57,198 nucleotides of DNA from Escherichia phage JLK-2012. Positions 18,449 to 27,951 of the stretch are shown here, piece after piece. The stretch is from sequence record NC_049942.1. One strand, given 5' to 3'. Below the pieces are notes generated by a model that was not told the origin of the DNA, did no database searches, and worked only from the letters and a program-made list of their open reading frames with translations. The position numbers and the translations under genes were made by a program. The first letter of the stretch is position 1; each line of letters starts with the position of its first letter.

Positions 18449-18538
18449 TTGACGCGATGATTTATTCGGGGCTATATTCCTCACGCGCCAGCAAAATCTG
18501 GCGTCGGGATTAGCACCCCGGATATCGAAACGGTGCAT

Positions 18539-18560
18539 AACCGCGCTGGCGGTTTTTTTA
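18539..18560 (+). terminator. Rho-independent terminator after ninE
   Basis: Hairpin AACCGC-GCTG-GCGGTT followed by TTTTTTT. Confidence 0.6.
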
Positions 18561-18723
18561 TGCGCTAAGCACAGTCACATTCGCGATTTATGGCGGGCTG
18601 TGTGGGGGAGCCGAAAGGCTCGCCGGATGTTTCGACCGGTAGTGCTAACCCCGCACAGTTCGCCACCACGATGATTAGCACCTGACGGTGGCGAGGTAAA
18701 AATTATCGAAACGCGAGGTCATT

Positions 18724-19594: not shown

Positions 19595-19768
19595 ATGCAA
19601 GATACACTTTTCACTGAGCGCAAAAATATCAAACTCAACCTTCGCCTTCCATCACGGCTGAATGAAGACCTTCGCCGCCTGGCGGAAATGGACTGTATAT
19701 CTCTGAACTCTGCAATTGTTCGTTTGCTGGCAAAAGGTGTTAGGGAAGAGGTGGCGAATGGTCGCTAA
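19595..19768 (+). CDS. Arc-like ribbon-helix-helix repressor (57 aa)
   Basis: MQDTLFTERKNIKLNLRLPSRLNEDLRRLAEMDCISLNSAIVRLLAKGVREEVANGR; AAGGAG Shine-Dalgarno; immediately precedes the ant-like gene. Not in the supplied track. Confidence 0.6.
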   Translation: MQDTLFTERKNIKLNLRLPSRLNEDLRRLAEMDCISLNSAIVRLLAKGVREEVANGR

Positions 19769-20762
19769 AAACAGCGAAGCCTCAATGGCTGCAACCATTG
19801 AGGCTTCTAAATTACCAGTTAACCACGAGAAAACTGATATGACTAGTTTAGCAATTGCAGATCGCACAATCAATGTTCCATTCCACGGAACAAATCTCTT
19901 TTTGGTTGGAATTAACAATGAGCCTTATGTTCCTATGAAGCCTGTTGTTGAAGGTATGGGGATGGTTTGGGCTGCTCAATTTGTTAAGTTAAAACAGAGG
20001 TTTGTCAAAGGTATTTCGGAAATCGAAATACCTTCTGCTGGCGGTAAACAGTTAATGACATGTCTTGCCTTTCGTAAATTTGCGGCTTGGCTTTCAAGCA
20101 TTCAACCAAACAAAGTCCGCCCTGAAATCCGCGACAAGGTAATCCAGTATCAGGAAGAGTGTGACGATGTGCTCTACGAGTACTGGACTAAAGGCCATGT
20201 GATTAACCCGCGCAAAGCTAAAAAGGCATTGCCGGGGAAAATCACCACTGAACAGCAGGAAGCCATTAAACAACTCGTCATGAGTCGCGGTCAGTCTCTG
20301 CCAAAAGAAAAACAGACGAAGGCGATGATCACCATGTGGTCGTCACTGAAATCTCATTTTGGGTGTTCATACAAAGAAATCAGCGAGGAGCAGTTTACCG
20401 AAGCTCTGTCACTTGCTGCTCGCGTTCCGCTTGAAGGAGAGTTAATCGGCAAACAAGAGAAGAAGCTCAACGGGCTTTCCGCAAAAGAAACAGACAGCCT
20501 TGTATGGCTGTGGGATTATGCTAACCGCTCACAGGCATTATTCCGCGAATTGTATCCAGCGCTAAAGCAAATTCAATCGAACTATTCCGGCAGATGTTAC
20601 GACTACGGTCATGAGTTCTCGTATGTTATTGGAATGGCGAGAGACGTTTTAATCAATCACACACGAGATGTTGATATTAATGAGCCAGACGGACCAACGA
20701 ATCTTTCCGCATGGGTAAGGCTTAAGAACAAAGAATTACCTCCTTCACTACATCGCTACTGA
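19758..20762 (+). CDS. ant: Antirepressor (Ant-like)
   Basis: Follows the arc-like gene as in P22 immI; N-terminal domain (INVPFHGTNLFLVGINNEPYVPMKPVVEGMGMVW) resembles antirepressor N-terminal domains; start chosen at ATG with GAGGTG Shine-Dalgarno. Confidence 0.6.
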   Translation: MVAKNSEASMAATIEASKLPVNHEKTDMTSLAIADRTINVPFHGTNLFLVGINNEPYVPMKPVVEGMGMVWAAQFVKLKQRFVKGISEIEIPSAGGKQLMTCLAFRKFAAWLSSIQPNKVRPEIRDKVIQYQEECDDVLYEYWTKGHVINPRKAKKALPGKITTEQQEAIKQLVMSRGQSLPKEKQTKAMITMWSSLKSHFGCSYKEISEEQFTEALSLAARVPLEGELIGKQEKKLNGLSAKETDSLVWLWDYANRSQALFRELYPALKQIQSNYSGRCYDYGHEFSYVIGMARDVLINHTRDVDINEPDGPTNLSAWVRLKNKELPPSLHRY

Positions 20763-20780
20763 CAATTGACAACTTAACAA

Positions 20781-20806
20781 ACCCAGCTTCGGCTGGGTTT
20801 TTTATT
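20781..20806 (+). terminator. Rho-independent terminator after ant
   Basis: Hairpin CCCAGC-TTCG-GCTGGG followed by TTTTTTATT. Confidence 0.7.
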
Positions 20807-20830
20807 GGTGAATTTTCAATATGAGAGGAC

Positions 20831-21559
20831 ATGACAATGAACGAGCTGATAAATAGCAACGTCATCAAAATGACCAGCATTGAAATCTCTGAGCTTACAG
20901 GTAAGCGTCATGACAATGTGAAACGTACTATCGAAATGCTGGCTAAAAATGGTGTTATCCGACATCCTCAAATTGAGGATTGTGGAAGAATCAATGGGTT
21001 AGGCTTAAATCAAAGTTTTCGTGTGTATGTATTCGAAGGCGAACAAGGTAAGCGAGACAGCATTATTGTCGTCGCTCAGTTGTCGCCGGAATTCACCGCT
21101 CGCCTTGTTGACCGCTGGCGAGAACTCGAAGGGGCAACCGCGAAAATACCACAAACCTTTTCTGAGGCATTGCGCCTTGCGGCCGACCTTGAAGACCAGA
21201 AGGCTGAACTGGAGAAACAGCTTGCTCTCGCAGCACCTAAAGTTGAGTTTGCCGATCGCGTTGGCGAGTCCAGCGGAATTTTGATTGGAAACTTTGCAAA
21301 GGTTGTTGGTATTGGTCCAAACAAACTGTTTGCGTGGATGCGCGATCACAAAATCCTTATTGCTTCAGGCTCCCGGCGCAATGTGCCAATGCAGGAATAT
21401 ATGGATCGTGGCTATTTCACAGTGAAAGAAACAGCGGTCAACACAAATCACGGAATACAGATATCGTTCACCACAAAAATCACCGGGTGTGGTCAACAGT
21501 GGCTGACAAGAAAGCTGCTAGATAACGGAATGCTTAAAGTAACAGGGGAGGCTGCTTAA
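20831..21559 (+). CDS. Rha-family regulator / antirepressor with AntA/KilAC-type C-terminal domain
   Basis: 242 aa; N-terminus ([32 protein letters not shown]) typical of phage Rha proteins. Confidence 0.65.
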
Positions 21560-22164: not shown

Positions 22165-22832
22165 ATATCTACGAAAGAATTGATGGCAGCAAATACCGAA
22201 ATATTTGGGTAGTTGGCGATCTGCACGGATGCTACACGAACCTGATGAACAAACTGGATACGATAGGATTCGACAACAAAAAAGACCTGCTCATCTCGGT
22301 TGGCGATTTGGTTGATCGCGGTACAGAGAACGTCGAATGTCTGGAATTAATCACATTCCCCTGGTTCAGAGCTGTACGTGGAAACCATGAGCAAATGATG
22401 ATTGATGGCTTATCAGAGCGTGGAAACGTTAATCACTGGCTGCTTAATGGCGGTGGCTGGTTCTTCAATCTCGATTACGACAAAGAGATTCTGGCTAAAG
22501 CTCTTGCCCATAAAGCAGAAGAACTTCCGTTAATCATCGAACTGGTGAGCAAAGATAAAAAATATGTCATTTGCCACGCCGATTATCCTTGTAACGAATA
22601 CGAATTTGGAAAGCCAGTTGATCCTCTGCAGGTAATCTGGAACCGCGAACGAATCGGCAACTCACAAGACGGGATCGTGAAAGAAATTAAAGGCGCGGAC
22701 ACGTTCATCTTTGGTCATACGCCAGCAGTGAAACCACTCAAATTTGCCAACCAGATGTATATCGATACCGGCGCAGTGTTCTGCGGAAACCTCGCATTGA
22801 TTCAGGTACAGGGAGAAGGCGCGTGGGCATAA
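22161..22832 (+). CDS. ninI: Ser/Thr protein phosphatase (NinI-like, PPP family)
   Basis: 223 aa with metallophosphatase motifs GDLHG, GDLVDRG, GNHE. Confidence 0.9.
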
Positions 22833-23311
22833 GAGAACTAAACCTCACCAAAGAACAGCACGAGTGGCTGAATGGCTGGCTTGAACTGTGGGGCGCATGG
22901 GTTTATTCAGGTCGTCTGGAAAAGCGCATGAGCAGCGTAATAGCGAAGTTCATGGAGAGCGTAGAGCCGGGAAGAGTTATGACAAGGCCAATGTGTAATG
23001 ATGATGATGGAATGTTGATTTCTCAGGTCGTCGATTCCGTCATGTACATTGACAAGAAAGCCTTCGGCATCCTCCTCAGCTACTACGCTCATGGTTCTTC
23101 CAGGCACGCCATTGCATCTTACTATCATCGCGTCGCAAGACCTCGCAAGATGTTATGCCGGGGCGGCGGGCGCATTCAAAAACCATCGCTCGCAACCTGT
23201 CGACGGGAAGTTGACGAAATCCTTAATGCCTCGTTGTTTATGATTTACCCGGTTCTGGATAGTGCGTTTAAAAACCGGAAACGTGTAGAGAAAATTAAAC
23301 ATGTAGCATAG
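22823..23311 (+). CDS. Q: Late-gene antiterminator Q
   Basis: 162 aa, GTG start; last gene of the nin region before the tRNAs and lysis genes; motifs WGAW and CNDDDGM resemble phage Q-family antiterminators. Confidence 0.75.
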
Positions 23312-23366
23312 AACGTGTTGACATCATTGAGCAAATGAGCAACACTATTGGCATAAGCTGCCGTTA

Positions 23367-23400
23367 GTGACTCTTAAGTTGCAACGGTGGCTTTTTTATT
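23367..23400 (+). terminator. Candidate tR'-like terminator downstream of Q
   Basis: Stem CCGTT...AACGG followed by GGCTTTTTTATTTGGG; exact stem uncertain. Confidence 0.4.
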
Positions 23401-23401
23401 T

Positions 23402-23476
23402 GGGTCAGTCGTATAAAGGTCATTACGGAAGGCTGTTAACCTTCTTATCGTGGTTCGAGTCCACGCTGTCCCGCCA
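23402..23476 (+). tRNA. tRNA, anticodon loop CTGTTAA (anticodon GUU, Asn by my cloverleaf parse)
   Basis: Acceptor GGGTCAG/CTGTCCC (one U-U mismatch), anticodon stem GAAGG/CCTTC, T-arm CGTGG-TTCGAGT-CCACG, 3' G-CCA. Confidence 0.6.
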
Positions 23477-23481
23477 AACAT

Positions 23482-23557
23482 GCTGGTTTAGCTCCAATGG
23501 TAGAGCAACTGACTTGTAATCATCAGGTCGCCAGTTCGATTCCGGTAGCCGGCACCA
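23482..23557 (+). tRNA. tRNA-like gene with imperfect anticodon stem (loop CTTGTAA, anticodon UGU if functional)
   Basis: Canonical D-arm GCTC-CAATGGTA-GAGC and TTCGATT T-loop, acceptor GCTGGTT/AGCCGGC with G-U pairs, 3' A-CCA; anticodon stem pairs only 3 of 5. Confidence 0.45.
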
Positions 23558-23560
23558 TAT

Positions 23561-23635
23561 GCGGGTACCGTATAATGGCTATTACCTCAGCCTTCCAGGC
23601 TGATGATGCGGGTTCGATTCCCGCTACCCGCTCCA
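23561..23635 (+). tRNA. tRNA, anticodon loop CTTCCAG (anticodon UCC, Gly by my cloverleaf parse)
   Basis: Acceptor GCGGGTA/TACCCGC, anticodon stem TCAGC/GCTGA, T-arm GCGGG-TTCGATT-CCCGC, 3' T-CCA. Confidence 0.65.
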
Positions 23636-23647
23636 GATTTATTATCA

Positions 23648-23671
23648 GGCTCGCTTCGGCGGGCTTTTTTT
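23648..23671 (+). terminator. Rho-independent terminator after the tRNA cluster
   Basis: Hairpin GCTCGC-TTCG-GCGGGC followed by TTTTTTT. Confidence 0.7.
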
Positions 23672-23803
23672 GTATCTGCGCCACGCCCGGCGCATATCAA
23701 CCACAGAGCCTTTCGGGGGTGAGCTTACGGAGTGGTCAGTGTGACTTTCTCTGTGGGCAGATCGCTCCCGGGCGTTGGCTCACCCACCCAAAGGAACGTC
23801 ACG

Positions 23804-24235
23804 ATGTTTGGTATTTTTGGTAAAAAAGCCCGCCGAGCGGCAGTGGAAATTAAAAAGTTTGAGAAACGTGATCTGGCACAGGCGGTTATTAATGCTGCCT
23901 ATCTGGTGGCCTATGCAGATGGTGAATGTGAGGCTTCAGAGAAAGCGAAGATCGAGCAGGTCTTGCGTAACCAGCCTGCGTTGTCCGCGTTTACGTCAGA
24001 AATTAATGCGATTAGCGCAACCATTATCGGTCAGCTGGATACGAACTTTAAAACTGGTCGTCGAGCGGCGTTACGTGAGATCGAGGATGTGAAACACGAT
24101 ACGCGTGAAGCGGAAGACGTGCTGGATGTGGCGGTGGCCATTGCCGAAGCAGACGGCGAAATAGAGCCGGAAGAGCGCAAGGTGCTGGAAGAGATTGCCG
24201 GTGTTCTGGGCCTTCGTCTGGAGAATCATCTGTGA
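23804..24235 (+). CDS. TerB-like (tellurite-resistance TerB / DjlA-N fold) protein, 143 aa
   Basis: From internal ATG with AAGGAACG Shine-Dalgarno; helical repeats AAYLVAYADGECEASEKAKIEQVL and DVAVAIAEADGEIEPEERKVLEEIAGVLGL resemble TerB-family proteins (recalled). Confidence 0.5.
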   Translation: MFGIFGKKARRAAVEIKKFEKRDLAQAVINAAYLVAYADGECEASEKAKIEQVLRNQPALSAFTSEINAISATIIGQLDTNFKTGRRAALREIEDVKHDTREAEDVLDVAVAIAEADGEIEPEERKVLEEIAGVLGLRLENHL

Positions 24236-24243
24236 CGGTAAAA

Positions 24244-24396
24244 ATGCGTCTGGCTGTGGTTGCGCTCCTGCTGTTTCTGGTGGTGATGGTGGACTTCAGC
24301 AGTCGGATAATGTCAGTGCTGGCTGACGGTGTGCTGGTGGCGGGTGTGGTGGTTGTTGCTTTCCCGTTGCTGAAAAAGAAAGCATCAGGCGATTAG
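24244..24396 (+). CDS. Small hydrophobic membrane protein (50 aa)
   Basis: MRLAVVALLLFLVVMVDFSSRIMSVLADGVLVAGVVVVAFPLLKKKASGD; two predicted TM segments; follows the TerB-like gene. Not in the supplied track. Confidence 0.4.
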   Translation: MRLAVVALLLFLVVMVDFSSRIMSVLADGVLVAGVVVVAFPLLKKKASGD

Positions 24397-24771
24397 CAGG
24401 GTATCAGTTACCCGTTGAAATTTTTAAATACCTCACAATTCAGGCGGTTGACTGTTGTCTGGTTTGCGGGGAGTTTGTTAAAAGAAACTGGCATGGTGAA
24501 TCCCCCTATGCGGAGGGGCGATCAGCAACCAGGTATATGGGATAATCGCGGATTCAGGTGCTGATACTGAATTCACCGGGAGGCACCCGGCACCATGCTT
24601 TGCCACAAAAGTGTTGTTTCTGTTTTTCTCAAACTATCATCGTTATCCCTTTATTTCCGGCTGCGCATGGCGTGGCCTTTTTTTTACGACCAGCCACTGG
24701 CAGATGGCCATCCTGTAATTTGATTCCGGTTCCGGCTTTTTAACTCTGTTCCTGTACACGGGAGAAATTCG

Positions 24772-26625
24772 ATGTCGATTAAACATTATGATGTTGTCAG
24801 GGCGGCGTCGCCGTCAGACCTTGCGGAAAAGCTGACACATAAACTGAAAGAGGGCTGGCAGCCGTTTGGTAGTCCGGTGGCCATAACCCCTTATACCCTG
24901 ATGCAGGCGATTGCAGCAGAAGGTGATGTGGTGGTCAGTGGTGCAACTGAGCCGGAGTGGTACTACGTCATCGTATTGGCCGGGCAGTCCAATGCCATGG
25001 CTTACGGTGAAGGGCTTCCGCTGCCGGATTCATACGATGCTCCGGATCCGCGCATTAAACAGCTGGCGCGCCGCAGTACAGTGACGCCGGGCGGGGCTGC
25101 CTGCAGATATAACGATATTATTCCGGCCGACCACTGCCTGCATGATGTGCAGGATATGAGTACGCTGAATCATCCGAAGGCAGACCTGAGCAAAGGGCAG
25201 TATGGCTGTGTCGGCCAGGGCTTACATATTGCCAAAAAACTGCTTCCGTATATCCCGAATAACGCGGGGATCCTGCTGGTACCATGCTGTCGTGGTGGTT
25301 CGGCATTCACCCAGGGCGCGGAGGGGACATTCAGTGCGGACGCGGGGGCCAGCCAGGATTCGGCGCGCTGGGGTGTGGGTAAACCGTTATATCAGGACCT
25401 GATTGCGCGCACTAAAGCTGCATTACAGAAGAACCCGAAAAATGTGTTGCTGGCGGTGTGCTGGATGCAGGGAGAGTTTGACATGAGCGCCGCCACCTAC
25501 GCACAGCAACCTGCGCTGTTTACAGCCATGCTGAAGCAGTTTCGTGCTGACCTCACTGTGTTTAACGCGCAGTGTCATGGTGGCAGTGCTGTAAATGTGC
25601 CGTGGATTTGTGGTGACACGACGTATTACTGGAAAAACACCTACGGCACGCAGTACAACACCATTTACGGGGCGTACAAAAACAGGGAGAGTGAGGGCGT
25701 TTATTTTGTGCCCTTCATGACAGACGGTAACGGCGTCAATACCGCCACTAACGCACCGGCAGAAGATCCGGATATTCCGGCATCAGGATATTACGGCGCG
25801 GCATCGAGAACGAATGGAAACCAGGTATCATCAAACCGCCCGACACATTTCAGTTCATGGGCGCGCAGGAGCATTATTCCGGATCGTCTGGCAACTGCTA
25901 TTCTGAACGCAGCCGGGCGCACCTCAGCCTTCATCAGTGGTAAGGCGCCTGAAATCAAACCCTCGCCCGGCGGCAACACGCCATCGGGTCCGTCTGCAGA
26001 TACGTCCGTTCGCACAATCTCCCTGCTGCCGGCAGCCGGAGAGGCTGCTGCGCAGGGCTGGAGCATTAAGGATGGCGGAATTCAGTTGTCAGATGGTGTA
26101 TTTAAGATTGCCAAGCAGAGCAATAAAACCTGGTCCCTGACGCATCCGGTGGATGACGCAATTACCCTGCTGACACAGGGCGGCAGACTGACCTGTAAGT
26201 TCCGCCTGTCAGGCGCACTGACCAACAATCAGTTCGGGCTGGGGATTTATCTGTATACGGATGCTCCCGTTCCTGATGGTGTGGCGATGACGGGTACCGG
26301 TAATCCGTTCCTGATGTCGTACTTCACTCAGACCACTGACGGCAGAGTGAATCTGATGCATCACAGGAAAGCCGGAAACACGAAGCTGGGGGAGTTCGGC
26401 GATTACGGTAACGACTGGCAGACGCTGGAGCTGGTGTTCACCGCCGGCAGTGCCACGGTTACTCCGAAACTGAATGGAGTGGCTGGCCCGGCATTCCAGG
26501 TCATAAAAGACAGTCTGACACTGGGGCTGAATGCGCTGACGCTGACGGATGTTACAAAAAATGCAGCGTATGGCGTTGAGATAGAAAGTCTGGTGCTGGA
26601 GATAAATGCACCGGCATCATCATAA
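24772..26625 (+). CDS. nanS-p: NanS-p-like sialate O-acetylesterase (prophage YjhS homologue)
   Basis: 617 aa; N-terminal SASA/DUF303 esterase-like region ([11 protein letters not shown]); same position (between Q/tRNAs and holin) as nanS-p in Stx prophages as recalled. Confidence 0.75.
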
Positions 26626-26774: not shown

Positions 26775-26990
26775 ATGTACCAGATGGAAAAAATCACAAC
26801 AGGTGTGTCATACACCACGTCAGCGGTGGGGACGGGATACTGGTTACTGCAGCTGCTGGACAAAGTCTCTCCGTCCCAGTGGGTGGCGATAGGTGTGCTG
26901 GGGAGTCTGCTGTTTGGCCTGCTGACGTATCTGACAAACCTTTATTTCAAGATTAAAGAAGATAAGCGTAAGGCTGCGAGAGGTGAATAA
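26775..26990 (+). CDS. S: Holin S (dual-start MYQM)
   Basis: 71 aa [71 protein letters not shown]; two TM helices; directly precedes endolysin. Confidence 0.85.
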
Positions 26991-27487
26991 TGTCGCCATC
27001 ATTACGCAAGGCTGTTGCTGCTGCTATTGGTGGTGGGGCTGTTGCCATAGCGTCTGTGCTCATCACTGGTCCGAGTGGTGACGATGGCCTGGAAGGTGTC
27101 AGCTACATACCATACGAAGATATCGTTGGCGTATGGACTGTATGTCACGGACACACCGGAAAAGACATCATTCCCGGTAAAACGTATACCGAAGCAGAAT
27201 GCAAAGCCCTCCTGAATAAAGACCTTTCCATGGTCGCCAGACAAATTAACCCGTACATCAAAGTCGATATACCGGAAACAACGCGCGGCGCTCTTTACTC
27301 GTTCGTTTACAACGTGGGCGCTGGTAATTTCAGAACATCGACGCTTCTTCGCAAAATAAACCAGGGTGATATCAAAGGCGCATGTGACCAGCTACGTCGC
27401 TGGACATACGCTGGCGGTAAGCAATGGAAAGGGCTGATGACCCGTCGTGATATTGAGCGTGAAGTCTGTTTGTGGGGGCAGCAATGA
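26990..27487 (+). CDS. R: Endolysin R (lysozyme with N-terminal signal-anchor-release domain)
   Basis: 165 aa; N-terminal Gly/Ala-rich SAR segment ([20 protein letters not shown]), lysozyme-like core. Confidence 0.85.
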
Positions 27488-27951
27488 GCAGGGTAACCGC
27501 GATTATCTCCGCTCTGGTTATTTGCATCATCCTCTGCCTGTCATGGGCTGTTAATCATTACCGTGATAACGCCATCGCCTACAAAGAGCAGCGCGACAAA
27601 AACGCCAGAGAGCTGAAGCAGGCGACCGCCACCATTACTGACATGCAGCAGCGCCAGCGTGCTGCTGATGCACTCGATGCTAAATACACGAAGGAGTTAG
27701 CCAATGCGAAAGCTGAAAATGATGCTCTTCGGCGTAAGCTTGATAATGGTGGTCGGGTGCTCGTCAAAGGAAAATGCCCTGTGCCAGCCTCAGCCAAAAC
27801 CTCCAGCTCCTCCGGCATGGGCAATGATGCCACCGTCGAACTCTCTTCAGTTGCTGGACGAAACGTTCTCGGTATCCGGGACGGAATTATCCGTGACCAA
27901 ACAGCACTGAGAACGCTTCAGGAGTACATCAGGACGCAATGCCTGAAATAA
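27484..27951 (+). CDS. Rz: Rz inner-membrane spanin
   Basis: N-terminal TM segment then coiled coil; ATGA overlap with R stop; contains Rz1 in the +1 frame. Confidence 0.85.
27704..27910 (+). CDS. Rz1: Rz1 outer-membrane lipoprotein spanin
   Basis: Embedded in Rz; lipobox MVVGC, proline-rich ([11 protein letters not shown]). Confidence 0.8.

Follow-up and report, generated by a model that had tools for sequence, protein, structure and literature searches.

The late region of Escherichia phage JLK-2012 (sequence record NC_049942.1, of which the 57,198 nucleotides analysed here are called the window) carries at 23804–24396 a gene for a TerB-domain protein followed directly by a gene for a small DUF3927 membrane peptide. 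Judged from the homology of both flanks, this pair is a common non-toxin occupant of the slot that holds the Shiga toxin genes stxAB in Stx phages, reaching from the tRNA cluster and a terminator-like hairpin to an STnc100-family small RNA (sRNA) gene and a nanS-p-like esterase gene. Homology to phage P1 further identifies the two genes as an accessory module of the TciA/TciB family. The gene pair itself is already known and is ordinary annotated prophage backbone; what appears to be new here is a structured leader RNA of terB, supported by covariation, together with a diverged relative linked to the antirepressor gene ant. The slot and its content are made up as follows.

23647–23666, + strand: terminator-like G+C-rich hairpin, with a T run to 23672 (terminator scan); left boundary of the cargo slot.
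23695–23806, + strand: conserved structured leader of terB, about 110–130 nucleotides (nt) long (covariance model, 124 bits).
23804–24235, + strand: TerB-domain protein, 143 amino acids (aa), ATG start, RefSeq WP_001484313.1.
24232–24396, + strand: DUF3927 peptide with two transmembrane (TM) segments, 54 aa, GTG start, RefSeq WP_000216690.1.
24462–24634, + strand: STnc100-family sRNA gene (Rfam RF02076, 107 bits); right boundary of the slot.
24659–24677: terminator-like hairpin behind the STnc100-family sRNA gene (terminator scan).
24772–26625, + strand: nanS-p-like sialate O-acetylesterase (Pfam DUF1737, SASA and DUF6645).

Comparison with the late regions of Stx1 and Stx2 phages places the pair at the toxin locus, as the initial annotation had proposed, because both flanks are homologous and the cargo alone differs. 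On the left, window 23611–23682 (a tRNA 3' end, the hairpin and the T run) aligns at 82% with 2348–2420 of the 933W locus L006, where the counterpart consists of the 3' end of argO and the annotated 'possible rho-independent terminator upstream of the stx genes'. On the right, window 24433–24598 aligns with 3749–3925 of the same 933W locus, with homology going back to 46 nt past stx2B, and in the Stx1a phage Stx1_699 the window from 24424 onward corresponds to locus L018 from 5772 onward, with homology going back to 45 nt past stx1B; the esterase DNA is 97% identical to yjhS of the latter phage. Between these flanks lie stx2AB in 933W and TerB–DUF3927 in the window. The stxAB cargo of 933W and Stx1_699 thus shares with the pair its position, its flanks and its organization as a late-strand two-gene operon, and the flanking order of tRNAs, terminator-like hairpin, cargo, STnc100-family sRNA, nanS-p esterase and lysis genes is also that of Stx phages. 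The toxin proteins, however, are unrelated to TerB and DUF3927, stxA and stxB are both absent from the window slot, and the stx2 leader is about 40 nt long, unrelated and without the structured element. In 933W, a member of the STnc100 family lies past stx2B, with AsxR next to it in the opposite orientation. A link between STnc100 and the prophage sRNA PasD is drawn in a 2026 preprint, and prophage Pas sRNAs have TerB among their conserved neighbours according to a 2026 preprint.

The same context recurs in every sampled E. coli prophage, in the order Q, tRNAs, TerB, DUF3927, sometimes iraM, esterase and lysis genes, and one O157 prophage carries the 933W tRNA set ileZ-argN-argO followed by TerB, DUF3927 and the esterase. 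In some prophages the anti-adaptor gene iraM is inserted, in reverse orientation, between the esterase and DUF3927 or what is left of it, as in E2348/69 (L007, 4014–4701) and STEC1590 (L020, 4395–4730); the slot therefore gathers additional cargo.

The arrangement that would speak against an alternative occupant, namely the pair sitting beside stxAB in typical Stx phages, was searched for with chimeric stx2AB-plus-pair and stx1AB-plus-pair queries in 5,426 complete E. coli genomes, and in none of them were stx and TerB–DUF3927 found within about 1.4 kb of each other. By subtraction, the same genomes hold stx2 at about 737 places and stx1 at about 360. The intact pair, defined as at least 80% of its 593 nt, is present in 803 of these genomes at up to 8 places per genome, and some match to it, whole or partial, was recorded 4,610 times over 2,362 genomes. 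DUF3927 stubs, like the one in E2348/69, account for many of the short matches, and the DCE7 copy is a pseudogene with an internal stop. Among phage records, 327 carry stxA, and none of the 129 records with a TerB relative is named as Stx-converting; only two of these 129 are close relatives, both of them stx-negative at this locus. In IMG/VR, the window TerB has at least 348 close relatives and the P1-type allele at least 309. Given these genome counts, together with RefSeq names that already exist for both proteins and the homologous tciA and tciB of P1, the pair can no longer be called unusual at the toxin locus, as it had been at first.

Both open reading frames are present on the + strand as initially called, and the TerB assignment of the 143-aa product is upheld by profile searches and by sequence comparison with a solved structure. 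Pfam TerB (PF05099) matches residues 26–138 on positions 2–109 of the 118-position profile (60.2 bits against a cut-off of 24.4, E 2.9e-16), phrog_632 ('tellurite resistance') covers the protein end to end (E 3.8e-69), and query residues 15–137 align on chain residues 21–144 of the solved Klebsiella TerB, 2JXU_A (E 3.1e-7). These matches identify the protein as a soluble, single-domain, full-length member of the TerB domain family. Its acidic Asp-Gly...Glu motifs, AYADGECEASEK and AEADGEIEPEER, which make up the putative cation site, align with ASDGVSSEEK and KSDGNFDDDEK of 2JXU, and D39, G40 and E46 are invariant in nine phage TerBs. Compared with the TerB of the ter operon (terZABCDEF), the phage protein has the same single domain over almost its full length and both acidic motifs, but no TerC, TerD, TerE, TerZ or TerA is encoded nearby and its partner is the 54-aa peptide instead of the multi-pass TerC. 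The annotation of the USDA5905 prophage, which is nearly identical, and of the DNA flanking it shows no ter genes. As terC, terD and terE are missing from the window, the protein is not a ter-operon TerB.

The second gene had been described as encoding an overlapping 50-aa peptide with two TM segments; the overlap and two hydrophobic segments (about residues 6–22 and 28–47) are borne out, but the length is 54 aa, counted from the GTG at 24232 that overlaps the TerB stop codon as GTGA. The longer form is favoured because a 50-aa form from the ATG at 24244 would not overlap TerB; in addition, all nine homologues compared share Lys4 of the 54-aa peptide, which is also the form annotated in RefSeq. 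Pfam DUF3927 is matched with 71.7 bits (cut-off 25), the 'TciB-like' phrog_1470 is matched too, and stop and start of the two genes overlap or abut in all seven phages examined.

The P1 homologues place the pair in a wider family. Along its whole length, TciA of P1 shares 41% identity with the window TerB; TciB, 54 aa long, likewise belongs to DUF3927 (106 bits). In both phages a TerB-domain protein of about 141–143 aa is followed directly, on the same strand, by a 54-aa DUF3927 peptide, with stop and start coupled by an overlap of 1 nt in P1 and by GTGA in the window; in both, tRNA-Asn and tRNA-Thr genes lie a short distance upstream and expression would be tied to the lytic programme. The two differ in that tciAB belongs to the C1-repressed ban operon whereas the window pair lies in a Q-dependent late operon, and in that the structured leader is absent from P1. 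No TciC homologue was found in the window with tblastn of P1 TciC (best E 0.77). Transcriptome data showed that tciAB is transcribed during P1vir infection, and the tciABC region is reported among the hypervariable regions of P1-like elements. Outside P1, the two-gene unit lies between Q and the holin gene in temperate phages of Actinobacillus (pPE4) and Klebsiella (5 LV-2017) as well as in LMessi, Fostie and CharmingMan; it is also present in a Schitoviridae (N4-like) phage, in Pantoea phage LIET2 and in Machinavirus jumbo phages, in the last of which the peptide match is weak. We take the Machinavirus jumbo phages and the Schitoviridae phage to be strictly lytic, and the presence of the pair there would rule out a role confined to lysogens.

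Among E. coli prophage copies, the ratio of nonsynonymous to synonymous divergence (dN/dS) of TerB is 0.004–0.17 at dS 0.13–0.73, and that of DUF3927 is mostly about 0.17–0.45, with one pair at 0.93; these low ratios show that both genes are kept by selection and are not a chance pair of reading frames. A functionless passenger retained between recombination-prone conserved flanks would account for the remnants and pseudogenes and for the non-essentiality of the module in P1, yet it is highly improbable given the constraint on TerB at such synonymous divergence, the conservation of the pair over unrelated phage types and hosts, and a leader that is both conserved and covarying.

The leader of terB is built from the following elements, of which the first strand of the long hairpin lies directly beside helix H1.

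23701–23708 with 23749–23756: helix H1, CCACAGAG with CUCUGUGG.
23709–23724 with 23778–23794: anti-Shine–Dalgarno (anti-SD) strand paired with the Shine–Dalgarno (SD) strand.
23790–23795: SD sequence AAAGGA, 8 nt 5' of the TerB ATG.
23729–23737 with 23760–23768: inner helix.

This leader is conserved more than the protein behind it: even phages with a TerB of only about 43% identity have a leader 83–86% identical. Two of its blocks, AGAGCCTTTC[G/A]GGGGTG and GGCTCACCC[A/G]C[C/T]nAAAGGAA, are invariant even in the jumbo phages. The two blocks pair with each other, so that CCUUU pairs with the AAAGG of the SD sequence in a long hairpin in which CCUUU..GGGGUGAGC is paired with GCUCACCC..AAAGG and which includes GGGUGAGC:GCUCACCC. 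Folding of five leader types gave this SD-sequestering structure each time as the minimum-energy fold or no more than 3.7 kcal/mol from it. Within the anti-SD:SD helix, one pair changes from G-C to A-U, and two variants have matched one-base deletions in both strands.

Helix H1 occurs in six complementary versions, including CCGUAGAG:CUCUACGG, CCAUGGAG:CUCCAUGG, CCGCAGA:UCUGCGG and AACCACAA:UUGUGGUU, and 8 bp were reached in 0.9% of trials with shuffled controls. In an alignment of 46 distinct but mutually related sequences, which is model-based and fitted to the H1 helix only, leader pairing holds in 93.3% of cells versus 34–50% with slid partners, and 13 pairs are changed on both sides versus 2–6 for slid partners; the observed values were reached in 0 of 500 shuffles. 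Realignment with the covariance model was used because MAFFT misaligned the jumbo-phage rows. The first RNAalifold consensus, CUUACGGAG:CUCUGUGGG, was dropped, since in jumbo-phage and other variants it is deleted or changed without compensation. H1 and the long hairpin cross, the 5' strand of H1 being adjacent to the anti-SD, and H1 cannot form while the hairpin is fully zipped; the two would be either a pseudoknot, in which the base of the hairpin is unzipped, or alternative states. The proposed 'on' state with H1 is a conjecture.

None of the 4,227 Rfam families matched the leader at its gathering threshold, with at most 19 bits of noise at E values up to 10. A genome-wide pattern scan was too loose to be informative on its own, giving 79 matches versus roughly 67 expected by chance, and it contained five true leaders, all with TerB downstream. 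The leader precedes terB/tciA in lambdoid, Klebsiella, Actinobacillus and jumbo phages, and the covariance model did not detect it in P1, the N4-like phage, LIET2, Pseudomonas PMBT3 or Vibrio K479. In addition, a diverged copy, found with 33.5 bits (E 5e-7), runs up to the start codon (ATG) of the antirepressor gene ant in the lysis cassette of 933W-type Stx phages, where ant lies between R and Rz. It was seen in 933W, in PPyecE and in an O157 prophage, and retains CCUUU:AAAGG, with compensatory changes in both helices (CACAGAA:UUCUGUG and GAUGA:UCAUC). The ant-linked copies have the following positions.

933W (L006), 7742–7857: ant-linked leader copy.
L001, 10477–10592: ant-linked leader copy.
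L008, 9508–9623: ant-linked leader copy.

The leader resembles SD-sequestering riboregulators of translation, such as RNA thermometers and translational riboswitches, in that a long hairpin pairs a conserved anti-SD with the SD and in that a second helix, competing or pseudoknotted, is conserved alongside it. It differs from these in lacking an Rfam match and in having been found so far solely before phage terB and, in diverged form, before the late-operon ant.

Variation within the module was also observed. In some copies, GGGGGTGAG of the leader is replaced by a run of 7–11 G (L008, O157 644-PT8, at about 4905–4920; L002, Evi, at about 6100–6115; and several IMG/VR loci), which removes a U:A pair, and sometimes more, of the anti-SD helix and could represent slippage-prone regulator variation. 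In PPompW-type prophages (LC567818 and related), the match covering the hairpin and the early leader ends at an insertion of ISEc20, of the IS110 family, which seems to break up the terB leader or module. Moreover, leader types and TerB alleles are reassorted in Pantoea septica (L229), Klebsiella phage 5 LV-2017 (L012) and Citrobacter braakii (L243): the window-type TerB is also found with a different leader variant, and a P1-type TerB (43% identical) with a leader 83% identical to that of the window, which points to recombination within the module.

Upstream of the slot, the late operon begins with the antiterminator gene and its promoter.

22823–23311, + strand: Q antiterminator of phage-21 type (Pfam Phage_antitermQ, E 3.2e-24).
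23318–23360, + strand: late promoter pR' (alignment to annotated phage 21 features).
23318–23323 and 23341–23346: -35 (TTGACA) and -10 elements of pR', with the transcription start site at 23353.
23326–23341: Q-binding elements ATTGAGCA/AATGAGCA.
23354–23360: sigma-dependent pause element.
23355–23401, + strand: tR', which ends the short pR' transcript (alignment to the terminator annotated in phage 21, whose T run is one T longer).
23402–23476, + strand: tRNA-Asn (Rfam tRNA and RefSeq).
23482–23557, + strand: tRNA-Thr (Rfam tRNA and RefSeq).
23561–23635, + strand: tRNA-Gly (Rfam tRNA and RefSeq).

The whole operon runs in the order Q, pR', tR', three tRNAs, hairpin, TerB–DUF3927, STnc100-like sRNA, nanS-p-like esterase and S/R/Rz, so the components of the Stx-phage-like layout first described (Q, tRNAs, terminator-like hairpin, esterase and S/R/Rz) are indeed present. 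The backbone, however, is nearer to phage 21 than to 933W: the window DNA is 96.4% identical to phage 21 over 22810–23559, and the -35, both Q-binding elements, -10, start and pause of pR' equal the annotated phage 21 features base for base. With its Q21, exact Q-binding elements and S21 holin, the late region is better described as phage-21 type than as 933W type. The tRNA-Thr gene was missed by ARAGORN, which detected tRNA-Asn and tRNA-Gly, is given 49 bits by Rfam in agreement with RefSeq, and has a 3' half unlike that of the phage 21 tRNA-Thr.

In a simple promoter scan, no sigma-70-like site was found on the + strand of 23250–24850. In the homologous position, transcription by Q-modified polymerase from pR' is the accepted route for stx2. 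Lacking a promoter-like site and preceded by both tR' and a second terminator-like hairpin, the pair would be transcribed only from pR' by Q21-modified RNA polymerase, that is, after induction; this late-promoter dependence is plausible from the anatomy of the operon.

Another explanation is that the pair acts as a lysogenic-conversion stress factor, expressed in the lysogen and conferring resistance to tellurite or oxidative stress (or to colicins). The TerB homology is in keeping with this, as is enrichment of the pair in Shiga toxin-producing and enteropathogenic E. coli genomes among the listed matches, lineages that also carry ter islands; moreover, morons at this position can own promoters, and stx1 does. 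We nevertheless consider it quite unlikely, in view of the missing + strand promoter-like site behind two terminators, the sequestration of the SD sequence by the leader, and the occurrence of the pair in jumbo and N4-like phages, taken as strictly lytic, and in a repressor-controlled lytic operon in P1. In addition, the minimal tellurite-resistance construct cited in the literature is terBCDEF and not terB alone, and tellurite resistance from TerB by itself is unlikely.

In the explanation that we prefer, late transcription would be followed by a second gate at translation, with the leader hairpin burying the SD sequence of TerB until it is released through an alternative helix or some signal, H1 serving as a pseudoknot or as the alternative 'on' state. 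Translation of the peptide would then follow that of TerB by coupling through the GTGA overlap. The peptide would insert into the inner membrane, its two termini facing the cytoplasm, and might tether, or partner with, the acidic and probably cation-binding TerB domain there. Up to the moment at which the holin is triggered, the resulting lytic-phase complex might stabilize the energized inner membrane or shut it to superinfecting phage and pore-forming colicins. TerB has been reported to associate with the membrane and to partner the membrane protein TerC, and the ter cluster is known to confer resistance to pore-forming colicins and phages. By analogy, a tethered TerB may protect the infected cell until lysis, a membrane-guard role to which we would give about one chance in three. 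The explanation as a whole, that of a TciA/TciB-type slot cargo which is late-expressed, leader-gated and inner-membrane-associated, stands at roughly an even chance.

Several points weigh against this explanation. The tciA, tciB and tciC genes of P1 are non-essential for plaques by CRISPR interference, and decayed copies such as DCE7 with its internal stop and the DUF3927 stub of E2348/69 indicate that the module is dispensable. Pseudomonas PMBT3 and Vibrio K479 carry a TerB without the peptide, and the contact between TerB and the peptide, like the topology of the latter, is inferred. The phenotypes of the ter operon may not transfer to a lone TerB, as the window holds no other ter gene. Nested folds with H1 only are 5–18 kcal/mol worse than the SD-sequestering fold, and the simple promoter scan also missed pR', which makes the absence of a promoter weak evidence. 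Literature searches returned no functional study of TciA/TciB, of DUF3927, or of TerB in connection with lambdoid phages, stx or mitomycin.

The genes for lysis follow the esterase.

26775–26990, + strand: P21-type class II holin (Pfam; RefSeq annotation of the USDA5905 prophage).
26990–27487, + strand: lysozyme (Pfam; RefSeq annotation of the USDA5905 prophage).
27484–27951, + strand: Rz-type lysis protein (Pfam; RefSeq annotation of the USDA5905 prophage).

The pair might instead modulate lysis timing, the two-TM peptide and TerB as its cytoplasmic sensor acting on the pinholin and the signal-arrest-release endolysin in an antiholin-like manner or by buffering the proton-motive force. Q and the holin gene directly flank the pair in LMessi and the four other phages named with it above; in its small size and two TM segments the peptide resembles class II holins, and the same late operon encodes a P21-type holin. 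Such a role is nonetheless unlikely: the pair lies away from the lysis genes in P1, N4-like and jumbo phages, Pfam returns DUF3927 alone for the peptide and no holin family, and knock-down in P1 causes no plaque defect.

A phage-versus-phage or counter-defence function apart from membrane energetics was also considered, in which the pair would serve as an inhibitor or decoy for Shango or Bunzi, or exclude other phages through another target. TerB domains do occur in the Shango and Bunzi defence systems, the hypervariability of the tciABC region in P1-like elements would be in keeping with such a function, and the pair sits in a cargo hot spot. However, PADLOC-DB gave no significant match (best PDC-S48, E 0.003, 14.6 bits, below threshold), partner genes for a helicase/ATPase or a TM-lipid-binding protein are absent, and the strong purifying selection with little amino-acid change is unlike that of an arms-race gene, so that we regard this function as very unlikely. 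The PADLOC and NCBIfam searches gave nothing useful for either TerB or the DUF3927 peptide.

As for the prophage setting, the window corresponds to a lambdoid prophage of E. coli O55:H7 DEC5E (100% identity in two stretches compared) integrated in mlrA (yehV), within which the window starts; mlrA is also the Stx1 phage integration site in O157:H7. The prophage of the sister strain USDA5905 is 99.8% identical in the late region and has a different immunity region. An IS3-family insertion in the early-left region (about 8213–9521, - strand) is absent from the otherwise similar USDA5905 prophage and consists of the following parts.

9141–9467: OrfA.
8254–9141: OrfB.
9070–9186: ALIL frameshift pseudoknot.

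At window 18472–18670 (+) and 19716–21559 (+), a C4 antisense RNA with a1/b1 targets and isrK precedes two antirepressor-like reading frames of the nin region; this is antirepressor control of the P1/P22 ImmI type, and the corresponding Arc/Ant block in USDA5905 lies among the tail genes. At the right prophage end, past the tail fibre genes, a gene for an NleG-family type III effector was found at 52445–53020 (+) (Pfam T3SS_NleG, E 5.8e-46).

Taken together, these observations show that the stx position is a general cargo slot and not a toxin-specific locus, and that in E. coli it is most often occupied by the TciA/TciB-type module. Toxin genes can be exchanged there, in either direction, by recombination in the two flanks, the conserved terminator hairpin on the left and the sRNA/esterase stretch on the right. 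The module is under strong constraint in very different phages, including jumbo and N4-like ones. Tentatively, and at somewhat less than an even chance, the leader would represent an undescribed class of phage cis-regulatory RNA, in which an SD-sequestering hairpin and a competing or pseudoknotted helix gate the translation of accessory genes in strongly transcribed lytic operons, perhaps by sensing a physical or ionic signal, and the pair would be a widespread lytic-phase guard of the inner membrane that is displaced by stx through recombination in the hairpin and sRNA flanks. The leader RNA and its ant-linked relative may thereby offer a tractable handle on how phages meter the translation of accessory genes within their late transcripts.

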